A stretch of DNA of 61,831 nucleotides from Candidatus Hermodarchaeum yapensis (GCA_016840405.1 JAEOSK010000015.1:1-61831), one strand, 5' to 3'. Numbered from the stretch's first letter, positions 46,807 through 54,632 are shown. Numbers and translations are program-made. The notes: generated by a model not told the origin, from the letters alone.

Positions 46807-48098
46807 GTGAACTACTCCGTCCGAACTGACGGAGTTTCCTGCTTCAAGGCTTCAGCTAACGCTGACAACTCCACAGGCCCTTCCCGAGGTTCCCTCGGTG
46901 CATTGAGAGACCAAAGTCCCATCAGCTTAATATTCTTTGCAGCATTGATATCCCGATCCAATGAAAGACCACAGGTGGGACAAATCCAAACCCGGTCTGA
47001 CAACGAGAGATTCTCGTTGAGATTTCCACAACAATTGCAGCGCTTCGTTGTCGGTGCAGACTACCCCACTGCAATCAGTGTCACGCCATACCTAGCAGCC
47101 TTATAACGTAACATCTCAAGAAACTGGAACCAAGCCGCATCAGCAACTAACTTTGCAAGACGCCTGTTGCGAATCATACCGTGAATATTAGGACTTTCGA
47201 CCATAATCGCTTGGTTCTCGCGAATCAATATGGTTGAGAGCTTATGCTGAAAATCCATCCGTTGGTTGGCTAAGCGCTCATAGCAGCAAGCCAGCCTGTG
47301 TCGTGCTTTTTCCCGGTTTCGACTTCCCTGTGCTTTTTTGCTTAGTCTTTGATGCAGACATTGAAGGCCTTTCAATGTTTTTTGATAGTGTCGCGGATTC
47401 TTTATTTTCTCACCCGTGGACAAGGTGACATAAGTCGTCAAACCCAAGTCAACTCCAACTGACGCCTTATCTGTCGCTAGTGGTTTCGGTGGTGGAGATT
47501 TTCCGTCGTCGACCACAATTGATATGAAGAATTTACCAGTGATGGTCGAAACAATTGTACACATTCTTGGTTTACCAGTGAACTGGCGATGAAATACGAT
47601 CTTAACTGCTCCAATCTTAGGAAGATGAACTCGTCGAGTAACAAAATCAACACTGAAGAATTGGGGCACATCAAATGACTGTCGATGTGCTTTGCGCCGT
47701 TTGAACCTCGGATAGCCTGGTTATTCTTTTCTTTGGACAACACGACGAAAGAAGTGTTGGAAGGACATGGGGAGTCGCTTAATTGCCTGTTGCAGGGATT
47801 GAGAGTATGCATCTTTGAGAAAAGGATGGTCTCGTTTCAGTTCGACAAGGCGTTTATTCAGGTCGTACCAGCTTAAGCTGGTTTTATCCTTCTCAAAGGC
47901 TGTTTTCTTGGATTCTAACGCCCAGTTATAGACAAATCGACAAGCATCGATATTTTCCCTTATGCGTTCACGTTGGGCTTGATTGGGATAAAGGCGATAC
48001 CGGAAAGTTCTGAGCATACCGCTAGTTTTGACACAAAGAGATATTTGAAGACTCAATTCTTCCCCAATCTGAAAGACCGAATCCTTTTGCAGTCATAG
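46807..48098 (-). mobile_element. Solo tnpB element copy 4
   Basis: Left boundary TTTAT|CTATG, 13 bp from the rad50 stop; right end CTCCGTC-N6-GACGGAG-TAGTTCAC. Confidence 0.82.
46812..48017 (-). pseudogene. tnpB: tnpB pseudogene (two in-frame stops), paralog of copy 3
   Basis: MLRTFRYRLYP, RKE*PGYPRFK, GVDLG, AVG*SAPTTKRC, WICPTC, DRDINAA, all in one frame. Confidence 0.9.
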
Positions 48099-48111: not shown

Positions 48112-50478
48112 CTATTCCGAATGGATAAGTTGTCCATTGACCATTCGAAACTGATGTTCAGACGCTGATAAAACCGCTGATTGATGGCTAACCACGATAA
48201 TTTGTTGGAAGGTCTTAGATAATTCATCTTGGAGGAGACGAATGATGTTATCACGGCGTTGAATATCAGAGCCACCAAATGGTTCGTCAAGCAGAAGAAA
48301 CTGAGGTGTTGCACCCCGACCTTGGGGAAGAAGAGCGATGGCAAAGCCTAGTCGAAGGGCAAGGAGAAACTGATCTTCGGTACCGCCACTATAGAGATTA
48401 GCATCTACATATTCTCCGGCTTCAGCAGAGTACACCTTGAGACTGTAATCTTCAGAAAGTTTGGGGAATCGATATTTTCCATCTGTAATTGCAGCCAATA
48501 ACCGTTCCATGACGTACACTACTCTAGGACGAACCTGTTCACGACCACGTTCGGCCACTTCTCGGATTAATTCAATCGTAAGTTGTCCGACTTTGATATT
48601 GTCGTTTAGCTTTGTAACTTCACGTTCTTTTTTCGTAAACTCTTCCAAAATGCCTTCATTCTGTTTTAGAAGAGCAAATAACTCATCAAGACGTTCTTTG
48701 GTGTTTTTTCGATTTGCTTGCAATGTTGCTTTCTCTTCGCCAATTGTACGGATTTGCCTGTCCAAGTCTTCATACAGTTTCTCTGAATATTTTCCGATTT
48801 CTTCAGGAAGCTCTGGGAAAGTGAGGGCGGTAAGCCGTTCCTGTAGTGAACTGATATCTGTTTCAGTTTGAGTAAGATCGTCCTCAACAGCTGCGATTTC
48901 TGCTAATTGCCCTTCGATGCTTTGCAGTTGGTCATCTATTGTTTTTTGACTGGCTTTGAGCTCCATTAGCCTCTGCTCGGCTTCCTTTACGGTGTTTTGA
49001 AGAGCAGATGTATCAGATTTCTCAGGTATGTTAATTCCTTCCAGAACAGGTTCAGAGAGAGTATCAAGTTGATCGTGAACTTGTACAGATAATTTTGTAA
49101 TTTGATCTGCTAACACTTTATTTCGATCGATGTTTTCTTGGAGTTGGTCTTCATAGGTCATTTTCGCGTGATATTGAACCACCTGTTCATTGAGTTCTTC
49201 TTCTCGCTTCCTTAGCTCATCGAGTTGGGGTCCAACTCGACTGAAAGAAATGTATGTCTTAGCTAAATAGCCCAAGAAGGGAAGAGCTGCAATCAGGAGG
49301 ACAATGCCGATTATGAGATTGAAGAAAAATACACCAATTCCTGCAGATAAAAGGCCAATTGAAGGAATATAGAGCCACGGTGAAAAGAGGCGCCGTTGAT
49401 TCGTCTCTGCATCTAAGCGTTTTGCCTTAACTTGCTCATACTCAGTGGCGACATCTTCGAGGGGAGCTAGCTCATCGACTTGGCTCTTCAAACGGTCAAT
49501 GGTTTCTGTTGTCATTTGTTGTTCGTCAACTGTGGTTCTTAGTTTTTCTGTGATGGTTAGTAGCGTTTTGAAGTTCTTTTCGTCTTTTTTGAGATAGTCC
49601 GTTTGTTTCTGTTGAGTGAGAAGTTTCTTTTGTTGGGATTTGAGTTTTCCAAGGCTTCCTAATTGTTTCTTCAACCGCCTTTGTGTTTCTTTTCGGAATT
49701 GAATTTGTTGTTGTAAATTTTCTTGTTCATCTTTGACCGTTTTGAATGCCTTCACAGCGTTGTAACTCTTCTCGGTCTGAGCGAAAACCTGGCTTGTTTG
49801 CTTGAGTTGTTTTTCGATTTGGGCCAAGGCTTTCTGTTTTATTTCATATTCCTTGGTGTGCTCAAGGAAGTCTTCTTTGCTTCGGCGCAATTGATCAAGC
49901 AGTTGGTTTTCTGGATCTAACGCTTTCTTTAGGGGCCTTAATTCATTAGTGAGTTTATCGTCGACACGTGTAAAGCATTCGCGTCCCATCATGGCATTGA
50001 TAACGTGACGTCGTTCCATCTTAGCCATTTGAGCTAGGCGATCTAAGTCCTTCTGGAGGACGATATTGCTGGCGAGTAAATCACTCAAGTCAATTCCGTT
50101 GAGAAGACTATTGACTTCTTGATCTACATTCTTGACGCCAGTGGCTAGTAAGGAGGTTTGACCTGATGGAGAGAGCTTATGAAGCTGAGCAGTGCTGGGT
50201 CGTTTTCGGTGAATTTGTCGGGTAATCCGGTAGTGGGTGTTTTCAATTTCGAAATTAAGGCGGACATAGAGCTGCTCGGCATCATAGTTGATCAGGCGAT
50301 CCTTTTGTCCCAAGGGTGCTTTGTGGGTTTTTCCGAAGAAAGCGAAGAGTATTGCTTCAAAGATGGATGATTTACCAGATTCATTGGGTCCACTAATGGC
50401 GAGAATACCATGGGGGAAGGTCATGTCAACATCTAGATGTTTGAAATCCCGGGTTTCGAGTTGACGGAGGACGACCAT
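48112..50478 (-). CDS. rad50: Rad50/SbcC-family SMC-like ATPase with central transmembrane hairpin and no zinc hook
   Basis: GPNESGKSS Walker A, Q-loop VLQ, long coiled coils, YSGGTEDQ signature, LLDEPFG Walker B/D-loop, VSH; in mre11 operon. Confidence 0.88.
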   Translation of the reverse strand: MVVLRQLETRDFKHLDVDMTFPHGILAISGPNESGKSSIFEAILFAFFGKTHKAPLGQKDRLINYDAEQLYVRLNFEIENTHYRITRQIHRKRPSTAQLHKLSPSGQTSLLATGVKNVDQEVNSLLNGIDLSDLLASNIVLQKDLDRLAQMAKMERRHVINAMMGRECFTRVDDKLTNELRPLKKALDPENQLLDQLRRSKEDFLEHTKEYEIKQKALAQIEKQLKQTSQVFAQTEKSYNAVKAFKTVKDEQENLQQQIQFRKETQRRLKKQLGSLGKLKSQQKKLLTQQKQTDYLKKDEKNFKTLLTITEKLRTTVDEQQMTTETIDRLKSQVDELAPLEDVATEYEQVKAKRLDAETNQRRLFSPWLYIPSIGLLSAGIGVFFFNLIIGIVLLIAALPFLGYLAKTYISFSRVGPQLDELRKREEELNEQVVQYHAKMTYEDQLQENIDRNKVLADQITKLSVQVHDQLDTLSEPVLEGINIPEKSDTSALQNTVKEAEQRLMELKASQKTIDDQLQSIEGQLAEIAAVEDDLTQTETDISSLQERLTALTFPELPEEIGKYSEKLYEDLDRQIRTIGEEKATLQANRKNTKERLDELFALLKQNEGILEEFTKKEREVTKLNDNIKVGQLTIELIREVAERGREQVRPRVVYVMERLLAAITDGKYRFPKLSEDYSLKVYSAEAGEYVDANLYSGGTEDQFLLALRLGFAIALLPQGRGATPQFLLLDEPFGGSDIQRRDNIIRLLQDELSKTFQQIIVVSHQSAVLSASEHQFRMVNGQLIHSE

Positions 50479-50482
50479 TTCC

Positions 50483-51646
50483 CTACCAGCCTCCCAATTC
50501 TTCGAGGAGCCCGAGACCTCGTTCTAAAGCCCGTTGTAACTGTTTATTCTTTTCTGGGTCCTTCTCCTGTTTTATTCGGGCATTAAGATAGTCTTGGTAT
50601 TCAGTGATTGGTGGTTTGAGTTCCGATTCAGGGGTTAGAAGATCGGGTTCGGGACTAACGTATTCTAATTCGTCAATGATTTCTGTAGAGAAACATTTGG
50701 CAAATCCATGGCGTACGACTTCAGCGCGACGGTATTTTTCTGCAGATTTAATGGTCATCATACCTTTCAAGCGAAATCGGAGAATGAGTTGTGGGTTTCG
50801 CAGGCGAGTAATTTCTTTGATGAGCATTTGGTTGATGTTTGCGTCTTTGGGAATTGTCACTTCAATAGTTTGCATTGGGCGTGTGTCAATAGGAATGAAT
50901 TTCAGGTCTTGAACGCCATCGCTGTCTAATTCGAGCCAGACGAAGCCTTTCTTTTGTCCTTCTTCTGCGAAGGTGACATGTTCAGTGCTACCGGGTGTAC
51001 AAATGGTTGTGTTGCCTACTTTTTGTTTTTGGAATTCGTGGTTATGTCCGGCGGCGAGATATGTAAGATTCCTGGGAATTGATTTGAGCATAATATCGGG
51101 TTCATGAGGGTATGTTCCACGAAGCCCTTCCACGTTATAGTGGGCGAGAAGGAGGTTTACATCACCTTTTCCTGGAATCGATAGCTGGCTTAGGGGATCT
51201 TCAGAGGGTAGCAGGGTGGGATTAAATGAGATGCCTGAGATCTCGACTTTCAGATTTTTGAGTTCGATAGTTTCGGATTGCATAGTTTCCCAGTCTTGAA
51301 AGAAGGTGACGAAGCCTGTTCTAGCGTATTCCAGTAGGGGGGCTACTCCATGGCGTCGGGCCCGAGGGACATCATGGTTTCCGCTAATGATGAAAATGGG
51401 GATATTCTTTTCGTGGAGTTTGCGGAAGGCGTCCATCACACGAGCCCGAACTGGATTTCGTGGGTTCAGACCATCAAAGAGATCACCGGAATGGAGAAAG
51501 AGGTCAGGTTTCTTTTCTAGCGCGTATTCAATTACGGTGTCGAACGAGTTCATGAAATCTTTTTTTCGTTCGTAGCGTCGGGCTTGAAATTTAACGGCCG
51601 GGATGTCTAAGTGGGAGTCGGATGTGTGGAGAATAGTGATTGGCAC
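50483..51646 (-). CDS. mre11: Mre11/SbcD nuclease
   Basis: SDSH, SGDLFD, SGNHD, LAH, AGHNH, PGSTE. Confidence 0.93.
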   Translation of the reverse strand: MPITILHTSDSHLDIPAVKFQARRYERKKDFMNSFDTVIEYALEKKPDLFLHSGDLFDGLNPRNPVRARVMDAFRKLHEKNIPIFIISGNHDVPRARRHGVAPLLEYARTGFVTFFQDWETMQSETIELKNLKVEISGISFNPTLLPSEDPLSQLSIPGKGDVNLLLAHYNVEGLRGTYPHEPDIMLKSIPRNLTYLAAGHNHEFQKQKVGNTTICTPGSTEHVTFAEEGQKKGFVWLELDSDGVQDLKFIPIDTRPMQTIEVTIPKDANINQMLIKEITRLRNPQLILRFRLKGMMTIKSAEKYRRAEVVRHGFAKCFSTEIIDELEYVSPEPDLLTPESELKPPITEYQDYLNARIKQEKDPEKNKQLQRALERGLGLLEELGGW

Positions 51647-51652
51647 GTGTGA

Positions 51653-53284
51653 TCAAACCTCAGAGAATGCTCCTTTGAGTTTCTTTTCTTGCCGTTTTTC
51701 TTCGACAAGTTGTTGGTCTATTCCCGCGGCTTTTCGGGCTTTTTTAAGTCGTGAAACTACATCAATGTCAGCTCCACCTTCCCGTGTTATTCGGGGTCGA
51801 ACCTTAATCATCACGGGAGTACGCGTAATGTCACCCACGCATACGGCTTCACCGACGTTCAGCCCAGGTAGATCATTGATGAGATCCGCGCTTAACCGTT
51901 CTGACGATTGTTCGATTGCGGTTTGATCACGCGGATTTGTGATTTTTAGGACGATTTGGCTGTTACATTGACTTAGGCTATCGGGGTGAATCCGTCCTGG
52001 TCGTTGGCTAATTAAGAGTAAAAATACTCCAAACTTTCGACCCTCTTGGGCAATACGTCGGATAATGGTTTCAGAATAGGTTCGGCTTTCAGGGGGTACA
52101 AAAGTGTGGGCTTCTTCGACAACCGCAAAAACTGGATAGGGAAAATCTCCAGACGTAACAGCATCGAATGTATCTTTTAACAAGCGGCTAACGATGTAGT
52201 CAGTACTAAGATTTCCCAACCCTGAAAGATCAATGACGGACGCATGATATGGTTTGATGATGTTGGTGATGGGTACACCACTCCGGGAAAACACCCGGAG
52301 CCGCCGTAGGCGTCGAATATATTTTACAGCATTAAGAGCACCCAATTTAATGGATTTATCCAACCCTTCGATGTTAGCCACTGTGTGTAATTCATTTTCA
52401 ATGTCCTCAGTAAGGTAGACAACATCCCGATCTTTTAGCTGTTGGAGAGCCGTGGTTAGACCTGCTCGAATGTTGGTGTACTGGCTACCGATTCCACAAA
52501 TTGAGCACAATTCTTCAAAATCGAGATCAGCTAAGCGTACCGTGTATGGTTCGACGCGACCAATATCTTTCTTGCTATAACGCCCCGTGCTTTCTGGATT
52601 TTGAAACACTGTGACACGATTTGAGAAACTGTGTTTATCACCCTTCTCTTTTTGGCTAAGAAAGACATAGTCTGCGTGTGGATCGATAATGATGATGGTG
52701 GCTCCCCGCTCCATGAGTTCTTCAATTAGCACGCCGGTGAGATAGCTTTTTCCTGCTCCAGTTTGTGCAAGAATGGCGACATGTCGTCTAAAGCCATTTA
52801 TGCGAAGATGAACTGGGATTTGCGGGCGGGAGATGAGATTCCCAACATAGACACTGGCATCTTGTGGGTATTCGTAGAATTTCGCCAGAAGATGGTTAGG
52901 GGCAATGTAGATGGGGTTCCCGGGAGTTACCGCTCGTCGAGGTAATAGTATCTGGGGAGGATGACCTTTCTTGGAGGGAACTAGATAACCTAGAACCCGG
53001 GCAATTCCCCATGTCTTAACGTCATCAATGCCAGCATCTTTGATGCGATAAATTGCCTCAATATCTAAATTACGTCGAAGAGCAAGGCTTTGCGAAGTTA
53101 TTCTTTCTACTTGGGCGAGGACCTCAACCGGTTTTAGAATTCCATCCACGAGCTCTTCCGAGTTAACTGTGAGATATTCAAACTTTGGTGGATACCGTTT
53201 TCGATCACTAGCAAATAGAAATTCTGTGGCCCGGGCTTCTTCGACAATGAATCCGACGGGTTCTTCGTTTTGTCCTTTAGCCAT
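51653..53284 (-). CDS. herA: HerA DNA translocase/helicase
   Basis: HAS barrel N-terminus, RHVAILAQTGAGKS, DPHADY, EEAH, EGRKFG, SQRP, LSQCN. Confidence 0.95.
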   Translation of the reverse strand: MAKGQNEEPVGFIVEEARATEFLFASDRKRYPPKFEYLTVNSEELVDGILKPVEVLAQVERITSQSLALRRNLDIEAIYRIKDAGIDDVKTWGIARVLGYLVPSKKGHPPQILLPRRAVTPGNPIYIAPNHLLAKFYEYPQDASVYVGNLISRPQIPVHLRINGFRRHVAILAQTGAGKSYLTGVLIEELMERGATIIIIDPHADYVFLSQKEKGDKHSFSNRVTVFQNPESTGRYSKKDIGRVEPYTVRLADLDFEELCSICGIGSQYTNIRAGLTTALQQLKDRDVVYLTEDIENELHTVANIEGLDKSIKLGALNAVKYIRRLRRLRVFSRSGVPITNIIKPYHASVIDLSGLGNLSTDYIVSRLLKDTFDAVTSGDFPYPVFAVVEEAHTFVPPESRTYSETIIRRIAQEGRKFGVFLLLISQRPGRIHPDSLSQCNSQIVLKITNPRDQTAIEQSSERLSADLINDLPGLNVGEAVCVGDITRTPVMIKVRPRITREGGADIDVVSRLKKARKAAGIDQQLVEEKRQEKKLKGAFSEV

Positions 53285-54632
53285 GTCTTAACCTCCTTTC
53301 TCTACGCCTAGGAATTAACGATATTTTCAATTCCTTTTCTACTAGGGGTTCATAAAGTGTTGTTACATCTTTTAGAGGTAATCGTGCTTCTCGATCGGCG
53401 TGCACCAAGAACACATTATACAACTCTGGACCACCATACTCTCCAAGAAGTGTCTCTAAGATTGTTTGCACACGACTGGGTGGAGGATCAAGCATTCGTG
53501 ATGCTGACACCTGTGAAAGGCGTGTTGGTATTCCAACGTTAAAGGCGGGCATATCTATGCGCATGGGTGTATCATTGTGTGCAAGTTTTGCACAAACAGT
53601 TACGAATGTCGGAAGTTGGAAAGTATCCTTCATCACGGGTACTGCCCATTTTTCAAAATCCTCATCACTTTGATAATCAACATAAACATTAGCAAAACGG
53701 CGTTGAACATAATCCGCGGGGTTCTTGGATTCATATTTGAATAAGGGAACGTCCGGGTAGGGTTCAATCGGTGTTGTGTAACCTGCTGTTTCTCCCCAGG
53801 CATGAATGAGAGCAAAATCTGGTCGCGGTCGGCGAAGTTCATAAAGTAGATCCCAAATCAGCTCATGTTGGCTTTTACTCAGGGGTAATTCTCGAAGAAA
53901 CCGGATGGCGGCTATGGCTGGCTTTTTCTCAGCCTCTAATGATTGGGCAACCTGACTGAAATCTTCAGAAGACAGTACTTTTTCCAAATCCTGTAAAACT
54001 TTGTCTCTTACTGAATCAAGGAGGAGCCGAGTAAGATGACGGGCGACGGAATCTTTACTAATTCCTAATATCAAGATTTTCCGTTTTCGACACTCCTCGA
54101 GAAGTTGGATAAAGGTCTGCATATAGCGTAGGTAGAGCTCACGTTCACCAGCATAGTTGAATGCAATTGGAACATGAGTAATTCGTCCATACAAAGATCC
54201 ATCCAAAAGTACTAAATCGACATCTGACGCGGATTGGACAGCCTCAAGAGCGACTTGATGTTCAATGTGTTCGGATCGCAAGCTCACAAGGTCAACGAGT
54301 TGTTCACGAGGAGAGGCAATCATATGTGCATTAGAAGTCACTTTGCGGTGTGATTCCCCCCAAGAGGTGTACGCGCTAGCCCGACAAATATACATGAAAG
54401 CCCCCGGAGCATACTCTCGTGTTGAACGACCACTATCCACAGCAATAACACGAAGGTCCTGCTTTTGGGGGGCAGGAAGCTTCCGCCATTCTTTTTGAAA
54501 AGCAGCCTTCAGGAGTCCATCTAGTTCAGTGGACTCTTCACCGGTTAGTCTCCGACGGAAAACGTCTCGTTTTTCCTGCAATTCATTGAGGAATAAATCA
54601 AGAAAATTTGGCATATGACCATCGCCCAACAA
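53277..54632 (-). CDS. nurA: NurA 5'-3' nuclease
   Basis: IAVDSG, E, LLDGSLYG, GISKDS, C-terminal LVHADREAR; overlaps herA start. Confidence 0.9.
   Translation of the reverse strand: MLGDGHMPNFLDLFLNELQEKRDVFRRRLTGEESTELDGLLKAAFQKEWRKLPAPQKQDLRVIAVDSGRSTREYAPGAFMYICRASAYTSWGESHRKVTSNAHMIASPREQLVDLVSLRSEHIEHQVALEAVQSASDVDLVLLDGSLYGRITHVPIAFNYAGERELYLRYMQTFIQLLEECRKRKILILGISKDSVARHLTRLLLDSVRDKVLQDLEKVLSSEDFSQVAQSLEAEKKPAIAAIRFLRELPLSKSQHELIWDLLYELRRPRPDFALIHAWGETAGYTTPIEPYPDVPLFKYESKNPADYVQRRFANVYVDYQSDEDFEKWAVPVMKDTFQLPTFVTVCAKLAHNDTPMRIDMPAFNVGIPTRLSQVSASRMLDPPPSRVQTILETLLGEYGGPELYNVFLVHADREARLPLKDVTTLYEPLVEKELKISLIPRRRERRLRHG

Follow-up and report, generated by a model that had tools for sequence, protein, structure and literature searches.

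Archaeal and eukaryotic Rad50 proteins dimerise through a CxxC hook. What, then, serves at the coiled-coil apex of a Rad50 that has no such hook? This question is raised by a nurA-herA-mre11-rad50 operon on the minus strand of a 61,831-nt stretch of DNA from Candidatus Hermodarchaeum yapensis (GCA_016840405.1 JAEOSK010000015.1:1-61831; the window, to which all unlabelled nucleotide positions refer), the Rad50 of which carries a hydrophobic two-helix hairpin at its apex. What is new here is a Rad50/SbcC-family complex with a different, membrane-type apex. The explanation that we regard as fairly probable for the whole is a hookless branch of Rad50 with a membrane-inserted hairpin as its dimeriser, performing end resection at the membrane.

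A Rad50 in all but the hook

The original prediction, made from the DNA sequence alone, had described a Rad50-family ATPase of 788 residues with a single cysteine and no CxxC, encoded in a nurA-herA-mre11-rad50 operon. Translation confirms the protein's length and composition (C168 is the only cysteine), and Pfam and NCBIfam models identify the products of all four genes. The ATPase has an ABC-type split head, the Walker A, Q-loop, signature, Walker B, D-loop and H-loop motifs of which are invariant in an alignment of 83 homologues (20-92% identity) that was used throughout for Rad50. In the AlphaFold2 (AF2) model of the 788-residue protein (mean predicted local distance difference test score, pLDDT, 82.7) this head is joined to the long antiparallel intramolecular coiled coil of Rad50/SbcC, which runs up over residues 167-364 and down over residues 388-665.

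Among NCBIfam models for the ATPase, archaeal Rad50 ranks first (E 1e-37), before SbcC (7e-16) and SMC (3e-15), and the scores against the archaeal Rad50 equivalogs NF003034 and NF041034 remain far below their cut-offs (129 bits versus 700 and 117 versus 1000). A family profile searched against the PDB matched best the Rad50 of Methanocaldococcus jannaschii (E 6e-46) and Pyrococcus furiosus (E 1e-37), with T. maritima Rad50 in third place (range to E 4e-33) and E. coli SbcC and SMC thereafter. Foldseek with the AF2 model ranked the Rad50 of the C. thermophilum MRN complex and of M. jannaschii first, and look-alikes in the ESM Atlas belong to clusters described as 'AAA_23/AAA_27 SMC-like'. No CxxC is present at the apex, and the 788-residue gene product has no match to the hook model PF04423. 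The protein shows every defining feature of Rad50 but the hook. Its match to Pfam AAA_27 (28 bits, over the cut-off) was considered as a marker of YhaN and rejected as unspecific, because AAA_27 passes in 12 of 14 control genomes.

A charge-free hairpin at the apex

For the apex, the prediction had pointed to a hydrophobic peptide at residues 367-407 that would form two helices with a tight turn. The peptide is there (nt 49258-49380), and AF2 places in it two helices joined by a three-residue FFN turn, all within charge-free columns (Table 1). The helix is broken or kinked at S366-P367, where the hairpin begins, and this Ser-Pro kink is conserved, P367 being kept in 72 of the 83 sequences.

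Kyte-Doolittle (KD) hydropathy with a 19-residue window gives one outstanding block in the whole Rad50, at residues 364-413, with a maximum of 2.83. The corresponding maximum is 2.2-3.1 in hairpin-type proteins versus at most 1.59 in 20 control Rad50 proteins from Asgard hook-type operons. In a protein in which 29% of residues are charged, columns 364-406 of the 83-sequence alignment contain essentially no Asp, Glu, Lys or Arg. These columns show no amphipathic alternation, and they are bracketed by Lys or Arg in two-thirds of the sequences at columns 362-363 and 407. Helix 1 has a pattern of small residues (S-I-G-L-L-S/A-A-G), helix 2 has a conserved Gly and Pro and a KD value of 2.61, and each helix contains a proline (P372 in helix 1, P400 in helix 2) that 44 of the 83 sequences share. 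A hydropathy scan of the Mre11, HerA and NurA of the operon found no comparable segment.

The hairpin is far beyond chance. An assembly artefact is ruled out by its conservation throughout the family and by contigs from four public metagenome runs, which cover the DNA of the apex without any change, indel or joint. Given 43 charge-free residues, basic flanks, strong hydrophobicity of helix 2 and a character that is conserved despite sequence turnover, the apex looks like a membrane hairpin.

A separate and widespread lineage

A Rad50 tree was computed from head-domain residues only, with the apex excluded, and was rooted on the SMC of the source genome; a quick version had 72 rows. All 32 block-bearing Rad50 proteins fell into one clade apart from the 22 hook-type proteins (ultrafast bootstrap 99, Shimodaira-Hasegawa-like approximate likelihood-ratio test 94), and this clade appears in 99% of bootstrap trees. 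The partner proteins divide likewise: the Mre11 proteins adjoining a hairpin-type Rad50 (33 of 33) form one clade with support 99, and the HerA proteins of hairpin-type operons are split from those of hook-type operons by a branch with support 97. The Hermodarchaeota sequences nest among those of Thermoproteota and Bathyarchaeia, not among the Asgard hook types. Judged from these trees, the hairpin module is a distinct, co-inherited, large and old Rad50 lineage with its own Mre11 and HerA.

The separate nesting and the matching splits of Rad50, Mre11 and HerA indicate that the hook was not swapped in place within the operon. The original prediction, which had the hairpin replacing the hook and proposed a phylogeny against hook-type Rad50, therefore stands in part: there is no hook and the hairpin occupies the apex, but the hairpin is the hallmark of a separate old clade rather than a local exchange. 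The hairpin type became the sole type in Hermodarchaeota through either displacement or differential loss.

We used two database searches to examine how widely the hairpin occurs. A word-indexed search returned some 100 clusters in which the central block is likewise present and CxxC absent, from Asgard archaea (46-92% identity), from Bathyarchaeia and Thermoprotei (about 29%) and from a few bacteria; the few matches that bear a CxxC all lack the hydrophobic block. When 1.84 billion representatives were searched with a profile, 3,973 clusters matched at E <= 1e-30, a figure to be read as a maximum since hook-type heads may score as highly. In the best 146 of the 3,973 clusters, all 135 full-length proteins carry the block and none carries a CxxC. 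These 135 relatives range from 608 to 1392 residues in length, and the block keeps to the middle of the sequence (median of centre/length 0.49, r 0.93) and thus stays at the apex of the coiled coil whatever the length of the arms.

We also took 80 loci from species-representative genomes. The 70 full-length Rad50 open reading frames (ORFs) among them all carry the block and lack a CxxC. The hairpin type is found in the family of the source genome (labelled Hermodarchaeota) and in single Thor-, Heimdall- and Baldrarchaeota metagenome-assembled genomes (MAGs), and outside Asgard in Bathyarchaeia, Thermofilaceae, a Korarchaeia-type MAG, Nitrososphaeria and MAGs labelled Caldisericota, Tenericutes and Dormiibacterota. 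One member of the clade, of 971 residues, comes from a cultured bacterium, Dictyoglomus turgidum; a homologue search begun from it yielded no Bacillus protein. Mre11 is encoded directly upstream of the hairpin-type rad50 in every locus on a sufficiently long contig, and the complete nurA-herA-mre11-rad50 order is present in about half of the loci.

Some of the taxonomic labels deserve caution. The hairpin-type operons of the Tenericutes- and Caldisericota-labelled MAGs (L083 and L073) nest among archaeal sequences, L083 very near a Bathyarchaeia locus, which suggests recent transfer between domains or mis-binning. The Odinarchaeota label of another locus (L020) is doubtful, its gene being about 92-93% identical to the Hermod-type gene of the source. 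Gene annotation poses a separate difficulty: hairpin-type genes are now labelled 'AAA family ATPase' or 'exonuclease SbcC', and with such labels a genome survey that looks for the hook would miss the Rad50 of Hermodarchaeota and count it, wrongly, as absent.

Search for a hook-type Rad50 in Hermodarchaeota and other Asgard archaea

The original prediction had also proposed a search for a second, hook-type rad50. None was found with PF04423 in the source genome (86% complete), and a hook-type Rad50 query recovered only the hairpin-type gene in all 19 genomes of the family (the source and 18 sisters; family MAGs are 72-91% complete). Three candidates in the source genome were rejected. The best PF04423 match (21.9 bits) is the CPVC knuckle of a glycyl-tRNA synthetase and not a hook, a 1187-residue gene product on contig C18 is an SMC adjoining ScpA, and a 976-residue gene product on contig C41 is SMC-like, with a hinge-like middle and neither CxxC nor hydrophobic block. 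The gene of this last protein is followed by three genes on the same strand (265, 213 and 152 residues; L018:2517-7337) of unclear families, and the four genes may form an Asgard module resembling condensin or Wadjet/Mks.

Among the 150 genomes sampled from the phylum, the hairpin type is present in 18 of 18 from the family of the source and only sporadically elsewhere. Other Asgard archaea encode proteins of about 700-900 residues that match the hairpin-type Rad50 in the head only. Twenty of these were fetched, and a central CxxC is present in 19 and the hydrophobic block in none. Their genes sit in herA-mre11-rad50 operons, some with nurA in front. Two Asgard genomes carry both kinds of operon, namely a complete hairpin-type operon of four genes and a hook-type herA-mre11-rad50: G142, of a Thor-like family (L061 and L108), and G029, a Baldrarchaeota MAG (L089 and L109). 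This coexistence implies that the hairpin and hook types are not simply interchangeable.

A genome from another Asgard family (G138) encodes, in a herA-mre11-rad50 operon, a Rad50-like protein of 789 residues (L124:1904-4273) with neither CxxC nor block. The protein has a long branch in trees, and it may represent a third kind of apex.

Comparison with known systems

The canonical archaeal NurA-HerA-Mre11-Rad50 system (P. furiosus, M. jannaschii and Sulfolobales; NF003034, NF041034) has the same four families in one tight operon. It resembles the hermodarchaeal system further in the intact motifs of the Rad50 head and of Mre11, in the long antiparallel coiled coil and in being the closest match by sequence and fold. 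Its Rad50 has a CxxC hook, however, whereas the hermodarchaeal apex is a charge-free hairpin of two helices, and the hermodarchaeal Rad50 head, Mre11 and HerA fall apart from the lineages of Asgard hook-type operons. E. coli SbcCD and eukaryotic Mre11-Rad50 (PDB 6s6v, 7zr1) share the head, the coiled coil and an apex that must dimerise stably. Those two are free cytoplasmic or nuclear complexes with a soluble zinc hook at the apex, whereas the hermodarchaeal apex would lie in a lipid bilayer.

A comparable central region has been described in SbcE (YhaN) of Bacillus subtilis, an SMC/SbcC-like ATPase without CxxC that has an Mre11/SbcD-like nuclease partner, SbcF (YhaO), and a role in break repair and transformation (Krishnamurthy et al. 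2009, PMC2811018). The first half of its central domain is hydrophobic, and the domain contains a proline that is highly conserved. When overproduced in E. coli, neither this domain nor the full protein was soluble at all; the domain was not called transmembrane (PMC2811018). A fusion of SbcE to yellow fluorescent protein (SbcE-YFP) formed mobile foci on nucleoids and at the poles of B. subtilis; SbcE, the loss of which is linked to a transformation defect, sits at the pole of DNA uptake and competence and moves within a minute (PMC2811018). The hermodarchaeal Rad50 shares the absence of CxxC, the hydrophobic central domain and the conserved proline, as compared with the description in that paper only. 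SbcE differs in being bacterial, in its length of about 960 residues, in having no NurA or HerA partner and in coexisting with SbcCD. The sole sequence-level link between the two is the unspecific AAA_27 match.

Models of the anti-phage systems in PADLOC-DB (Lamassu, Wadjet, PARIS and HerA-associated systems) gave generic matches only. LmuB (88 bits) and HerA (167 bits) both score below the matches to repair families, and a PADLOC-DB search with Mre11 and NurA gave no match. Full-text literature searches turned up no publication on an archaeal Rad50 that lacks the hook or is of membrane type, and a 2026 review of Asgard NurA makes no mention of one.

A proposed membrane hairpin in place of the hook

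If the hairpin is what it looks like, the products of the four genes probably process DNA ends while tethered to the cell membrane. The hairpin would sit in the cytoplasmic membrane while both arms stayed in the cytoplasm; since both lobes of the head must be on the same side of the membrane, one helix cannot cross the bilayer without the other. With about 200 residues assumed per arm, the Mre11-Rad50 heads would hang some 25-30 nm below the membrane. Canonical Rad50 needs a stable dimer at its apex, and the MukB hinge can replace the Rad50 hook in yeast, which makes the hook an exchangeable constitutive dimeriser (PMC6969161). We propose for this reason that two hairpins pair within the bilayer, to which helix 1, with its small residues, and helix 2, with its conserved Gly and Pro, would lend themselves, and that this pairing would close the Rad50 ring, giving constitutive dimerisation of the apex in place of the zinc hook. 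ATP-driven engagement of the heads and zipping of the arms would then clamp DNA ends at the membrane, where Mre11 would cut and HerA-NurA would resect 5'-3' and feed homologous recombination.

In Hermodarchaeota the module is most likely a housekeeping system for the processing of double-strand-break ends, because no other Mre11-Rad50 was found in any of the 19 family genomes, its flanking genes are ordinary and no defence model matches it specifically.

Several points weigh against this proposal. Mre11-Rad50 is dispensable in some archaea, and the housekeeping role is drawn from the absence of the hook type in MAGs that are themselves incomplete. An insertase route for a hairpin that begins 365 residues into a cytoplasmic protein is only assumed. 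Helix 1 is marginally hydrophobic (KD only 1.49), and a rough sum on the Hessa scale, with approximate values, gives about +5 kcal/mol for helix 1 and about -1.6 for helix 2; helix 1, being unfavourable alone, would need helix 2 to insert. The turn has only three residues and the helices 18-19, so that the sequence allows a monotopic hairpin just as well as a full double crossing. The SbcE-YFP foci, moreover, do not obviously behave as an integral membrane protein would (PMC2811018), SbcE being likened to the present protein by description only.

One alternative keeps the architecture and concerns the function, and it can therefore be combined with membrane insertion: the module might have a specialised role with DNA that crosses or lies at the membrane (uptake, conjugation or virus genomes), the canonical complex having been lost in Hermodarchaeota. 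The patchy spread over Asgard, Thermoproteota, Bathyarchaeia, Korarchaeia and a few bacteria, with gene trees that depart from taxonomy, is in keeping with such a role, as is the coexistence with a complete hook-type operon in at least two Asgard genomes (G142 and G029). HerA-family ATPases pump DNA and are found in defence systems, and SbcE acts in transformation at the DNA-uptake pole (PMC2811018). Nevertheless, we consider a specialised role unlikely, given that the hairpin type is the sole Mre11-Rad50 found in the 19 family genomes, that its flanking genes are ordinary and form no defence island, and that the PADLOC matches, of the SMC and HerA kind, were all generic and scored below those to repair families, with none at all for Mre11 or NurA.

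Alternatively, the hairpin might be a monotopic wedge in the cytoplasmic leaflet, as in reticulons or caveolins, or might lie on some other hydrophobic surface, so that attachment would be peripheral and possibly reversible. Helices of 18-19 residues, an uncharged turn of three residues (FFN), the conserved prolines inside both helices (P372 and P400) and the marginal hydrophobicity estimated for helix 1 would all suit a wedge, and so would SbcE foci that shift within a minute (PMC2811018). Helix 2, though, is strongly membrane-spanning in character, and a block of 43 residues with no amphipathic pattern suits two crossings. By sequence alone the monotopic and the double-spanning hairpin are equally possible; as an account of the whole, we find the wedge improbable.

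It is very improbable that the hairpin is a greasy but soluble module for dimerisation or oligomerisation in a cytosolic complex, where it would take over the function of the hook through four or more apolar helices, from two or more Rad50 proteins, that bury one another. In favour of such a module, Rad50 needs an apex dimeriser of a kind that can be exchanged (PMC6969161), the hydrophobicity of helix 1 is only moderate and its content of Gly, Ser and Pro high, and the tight AF2 hairpin could pack against a second one. A four-helix bundle would still show a fully apolar surface, however; 43 consecutive columns are essentially charge-free in 83 diverged homologues without amphipathic alternation, both flanks are basic as at the cytoplasmic ends of membrane helices, and the central domain and the whole of SbcE are insoluble in E. 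coli (PMC2811018).

If the membrane-inserted hairpin is correct, double-strand-break processing, or the gatekeeping of incoming DNA, would be physically coupled to the membrane. Membrane-tethered processing of DNA ends, to which the present data point, is undescribed for archaea, and the archaea concerned are among the prokaryotes closest to eukaryotes. The zinc hook is taken to be a defining and universally conserved element of Rad50, and the hairpin clade shows that the apex is a replaceable module. A wider claim we can put forward only tentatively: the sole end-resection machine of Hermodarchaeota might be an integral membrane complex with hairpins paired in the bilayer instead of a hook, a design that might, unnoticed, be common to archaeal and bacterial lineages numbering in the hundreds to thousands and perhaps extend to Bacillus SbcE. 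The clade offers a testable handle both on the cellular site of break repair or foreign-DNA processing and on the nature of the insoluble central domain of Bacillus SbcE.

Organisation of the operon and its surroundings

The four genes follow one another tightly on the minus strand in the order nurA, herA, mre11, rad50 (Table 1). nurA and herA overlap by 8 nt, the gap between herA and mre11 is 6 nt, and mre11 ends 4 nt before rad50, an adjacent and presumably co-transcribed Mre11/SbcD nuclease gene as is typical of the Rad50/SbcC family. With four clustered genes and recognisable NurA and HerA domains, the locus is an archaeal NurA-HerA-Mre11-Rad50 end-resection operon, and the catalytic motifs are intact in all four proteins. 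The nurA product matches the NCBIfam models NurA_Pyro and NurA_Sulf weakly. The best NCBIfam model for HerA is helicase_HerA (E 1.8e-62), and its Walker A (GAGKS) and Walker B (VEEAH) motifs lie at residues 176 and 389. The Mre11 product is closest to archaeal Mre11 (NCBIfam Mre11_Sulfo, E 3.5e-30) and has intact phosphoesterase motifs at residues 9 (SDSH), 54 (GDLFD), 89 (GNHD) and 200 (GHNH).

Table 1. Position in the window of the operon genes and of the segments of Rad50
Feature	Position (nt)	Strand	Residues	Remarks
nurA	53277..54632	-	451 in total	TTG start; first gene of the operon; Pfam NurA PF09376, E 3.3e-18
herA	51653..53284	-	543 in total	FtsK/HerA-type hexameric translocase; Pfam DUF87/HerA, E 4.6e-38
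mre11	50483..51646	-	387 in total	GTG start; calcineurin-type phosphoesterase; Pfam Metallophos, E 9.5e-16
rad50	48112..50478	-	788 in total	Rad50-family ATPase; one Cys (C168), no CxxC
Rad50 head, N lobe	49981..50478	-	1-166	Walker A GPNESGKS at 30-37; Q-loop Q142
Ascending coiled-coil arm	49390..49980	-	167-363	AF2 helices 167-291 and 295-364
Apical hydrophobic hairpin	49261..49389	-	364-406	43 residues, uncharged, at the coiled-coil apex
Hairpin helix 1	49327-49380	-	367-384	AF2
Hairpin turn		-	385-387	FFN, three residues (AF2)
Hairpin helix 2	49261-49317	-	388-406	unbroken into the descending arm (AF2 helix 388-471)
Descending coiled-coil arm	48484..49260	-	407-665	AF2 helices 388-471, 490-550, 566-606 and 610-665
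Rad50 head, C lobe	48115..48483	-	666-788	Signature SGGTEDQ at 697; Walker B LLLDEP at 728; D-loop SD at 737; H-loop H765

The genes flanking the operon are ordinary (methyltransferase, radical SAM and amidohydrolase) and do not form a defence island. Relative to L020, the window contains an insertion of 1,277 bp (46807-48083) that begins 28 bp past the rad50 stop and has a match of about 12 bp at both its sides. The insertion holds a frame-broken TnpB of the IS605 family, with HTH_OrfB_IS605 in the ORF at 47721-48056 and OrfB_IS605 in the ORF at 47061-47669.

Downstream of rad50 and on the same strand, a pair of genes (45388-46740 and 44863-45306, both minus) is present in 17 of the 17 Hermodarchaeota loci seen. 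The pair is probably a unit separate from the operon, because a convergent gene for a 303-residue protein lies between it and rad50 in most relatives. The first gene encodes a protein of 450 residues that has no family match and an AF2 model too poor to use (pLDDT 49.9), and the second encodes a protein of 147 residues in which two predicted membrane helices precede a CxxC...CxxC zinc ribbon.

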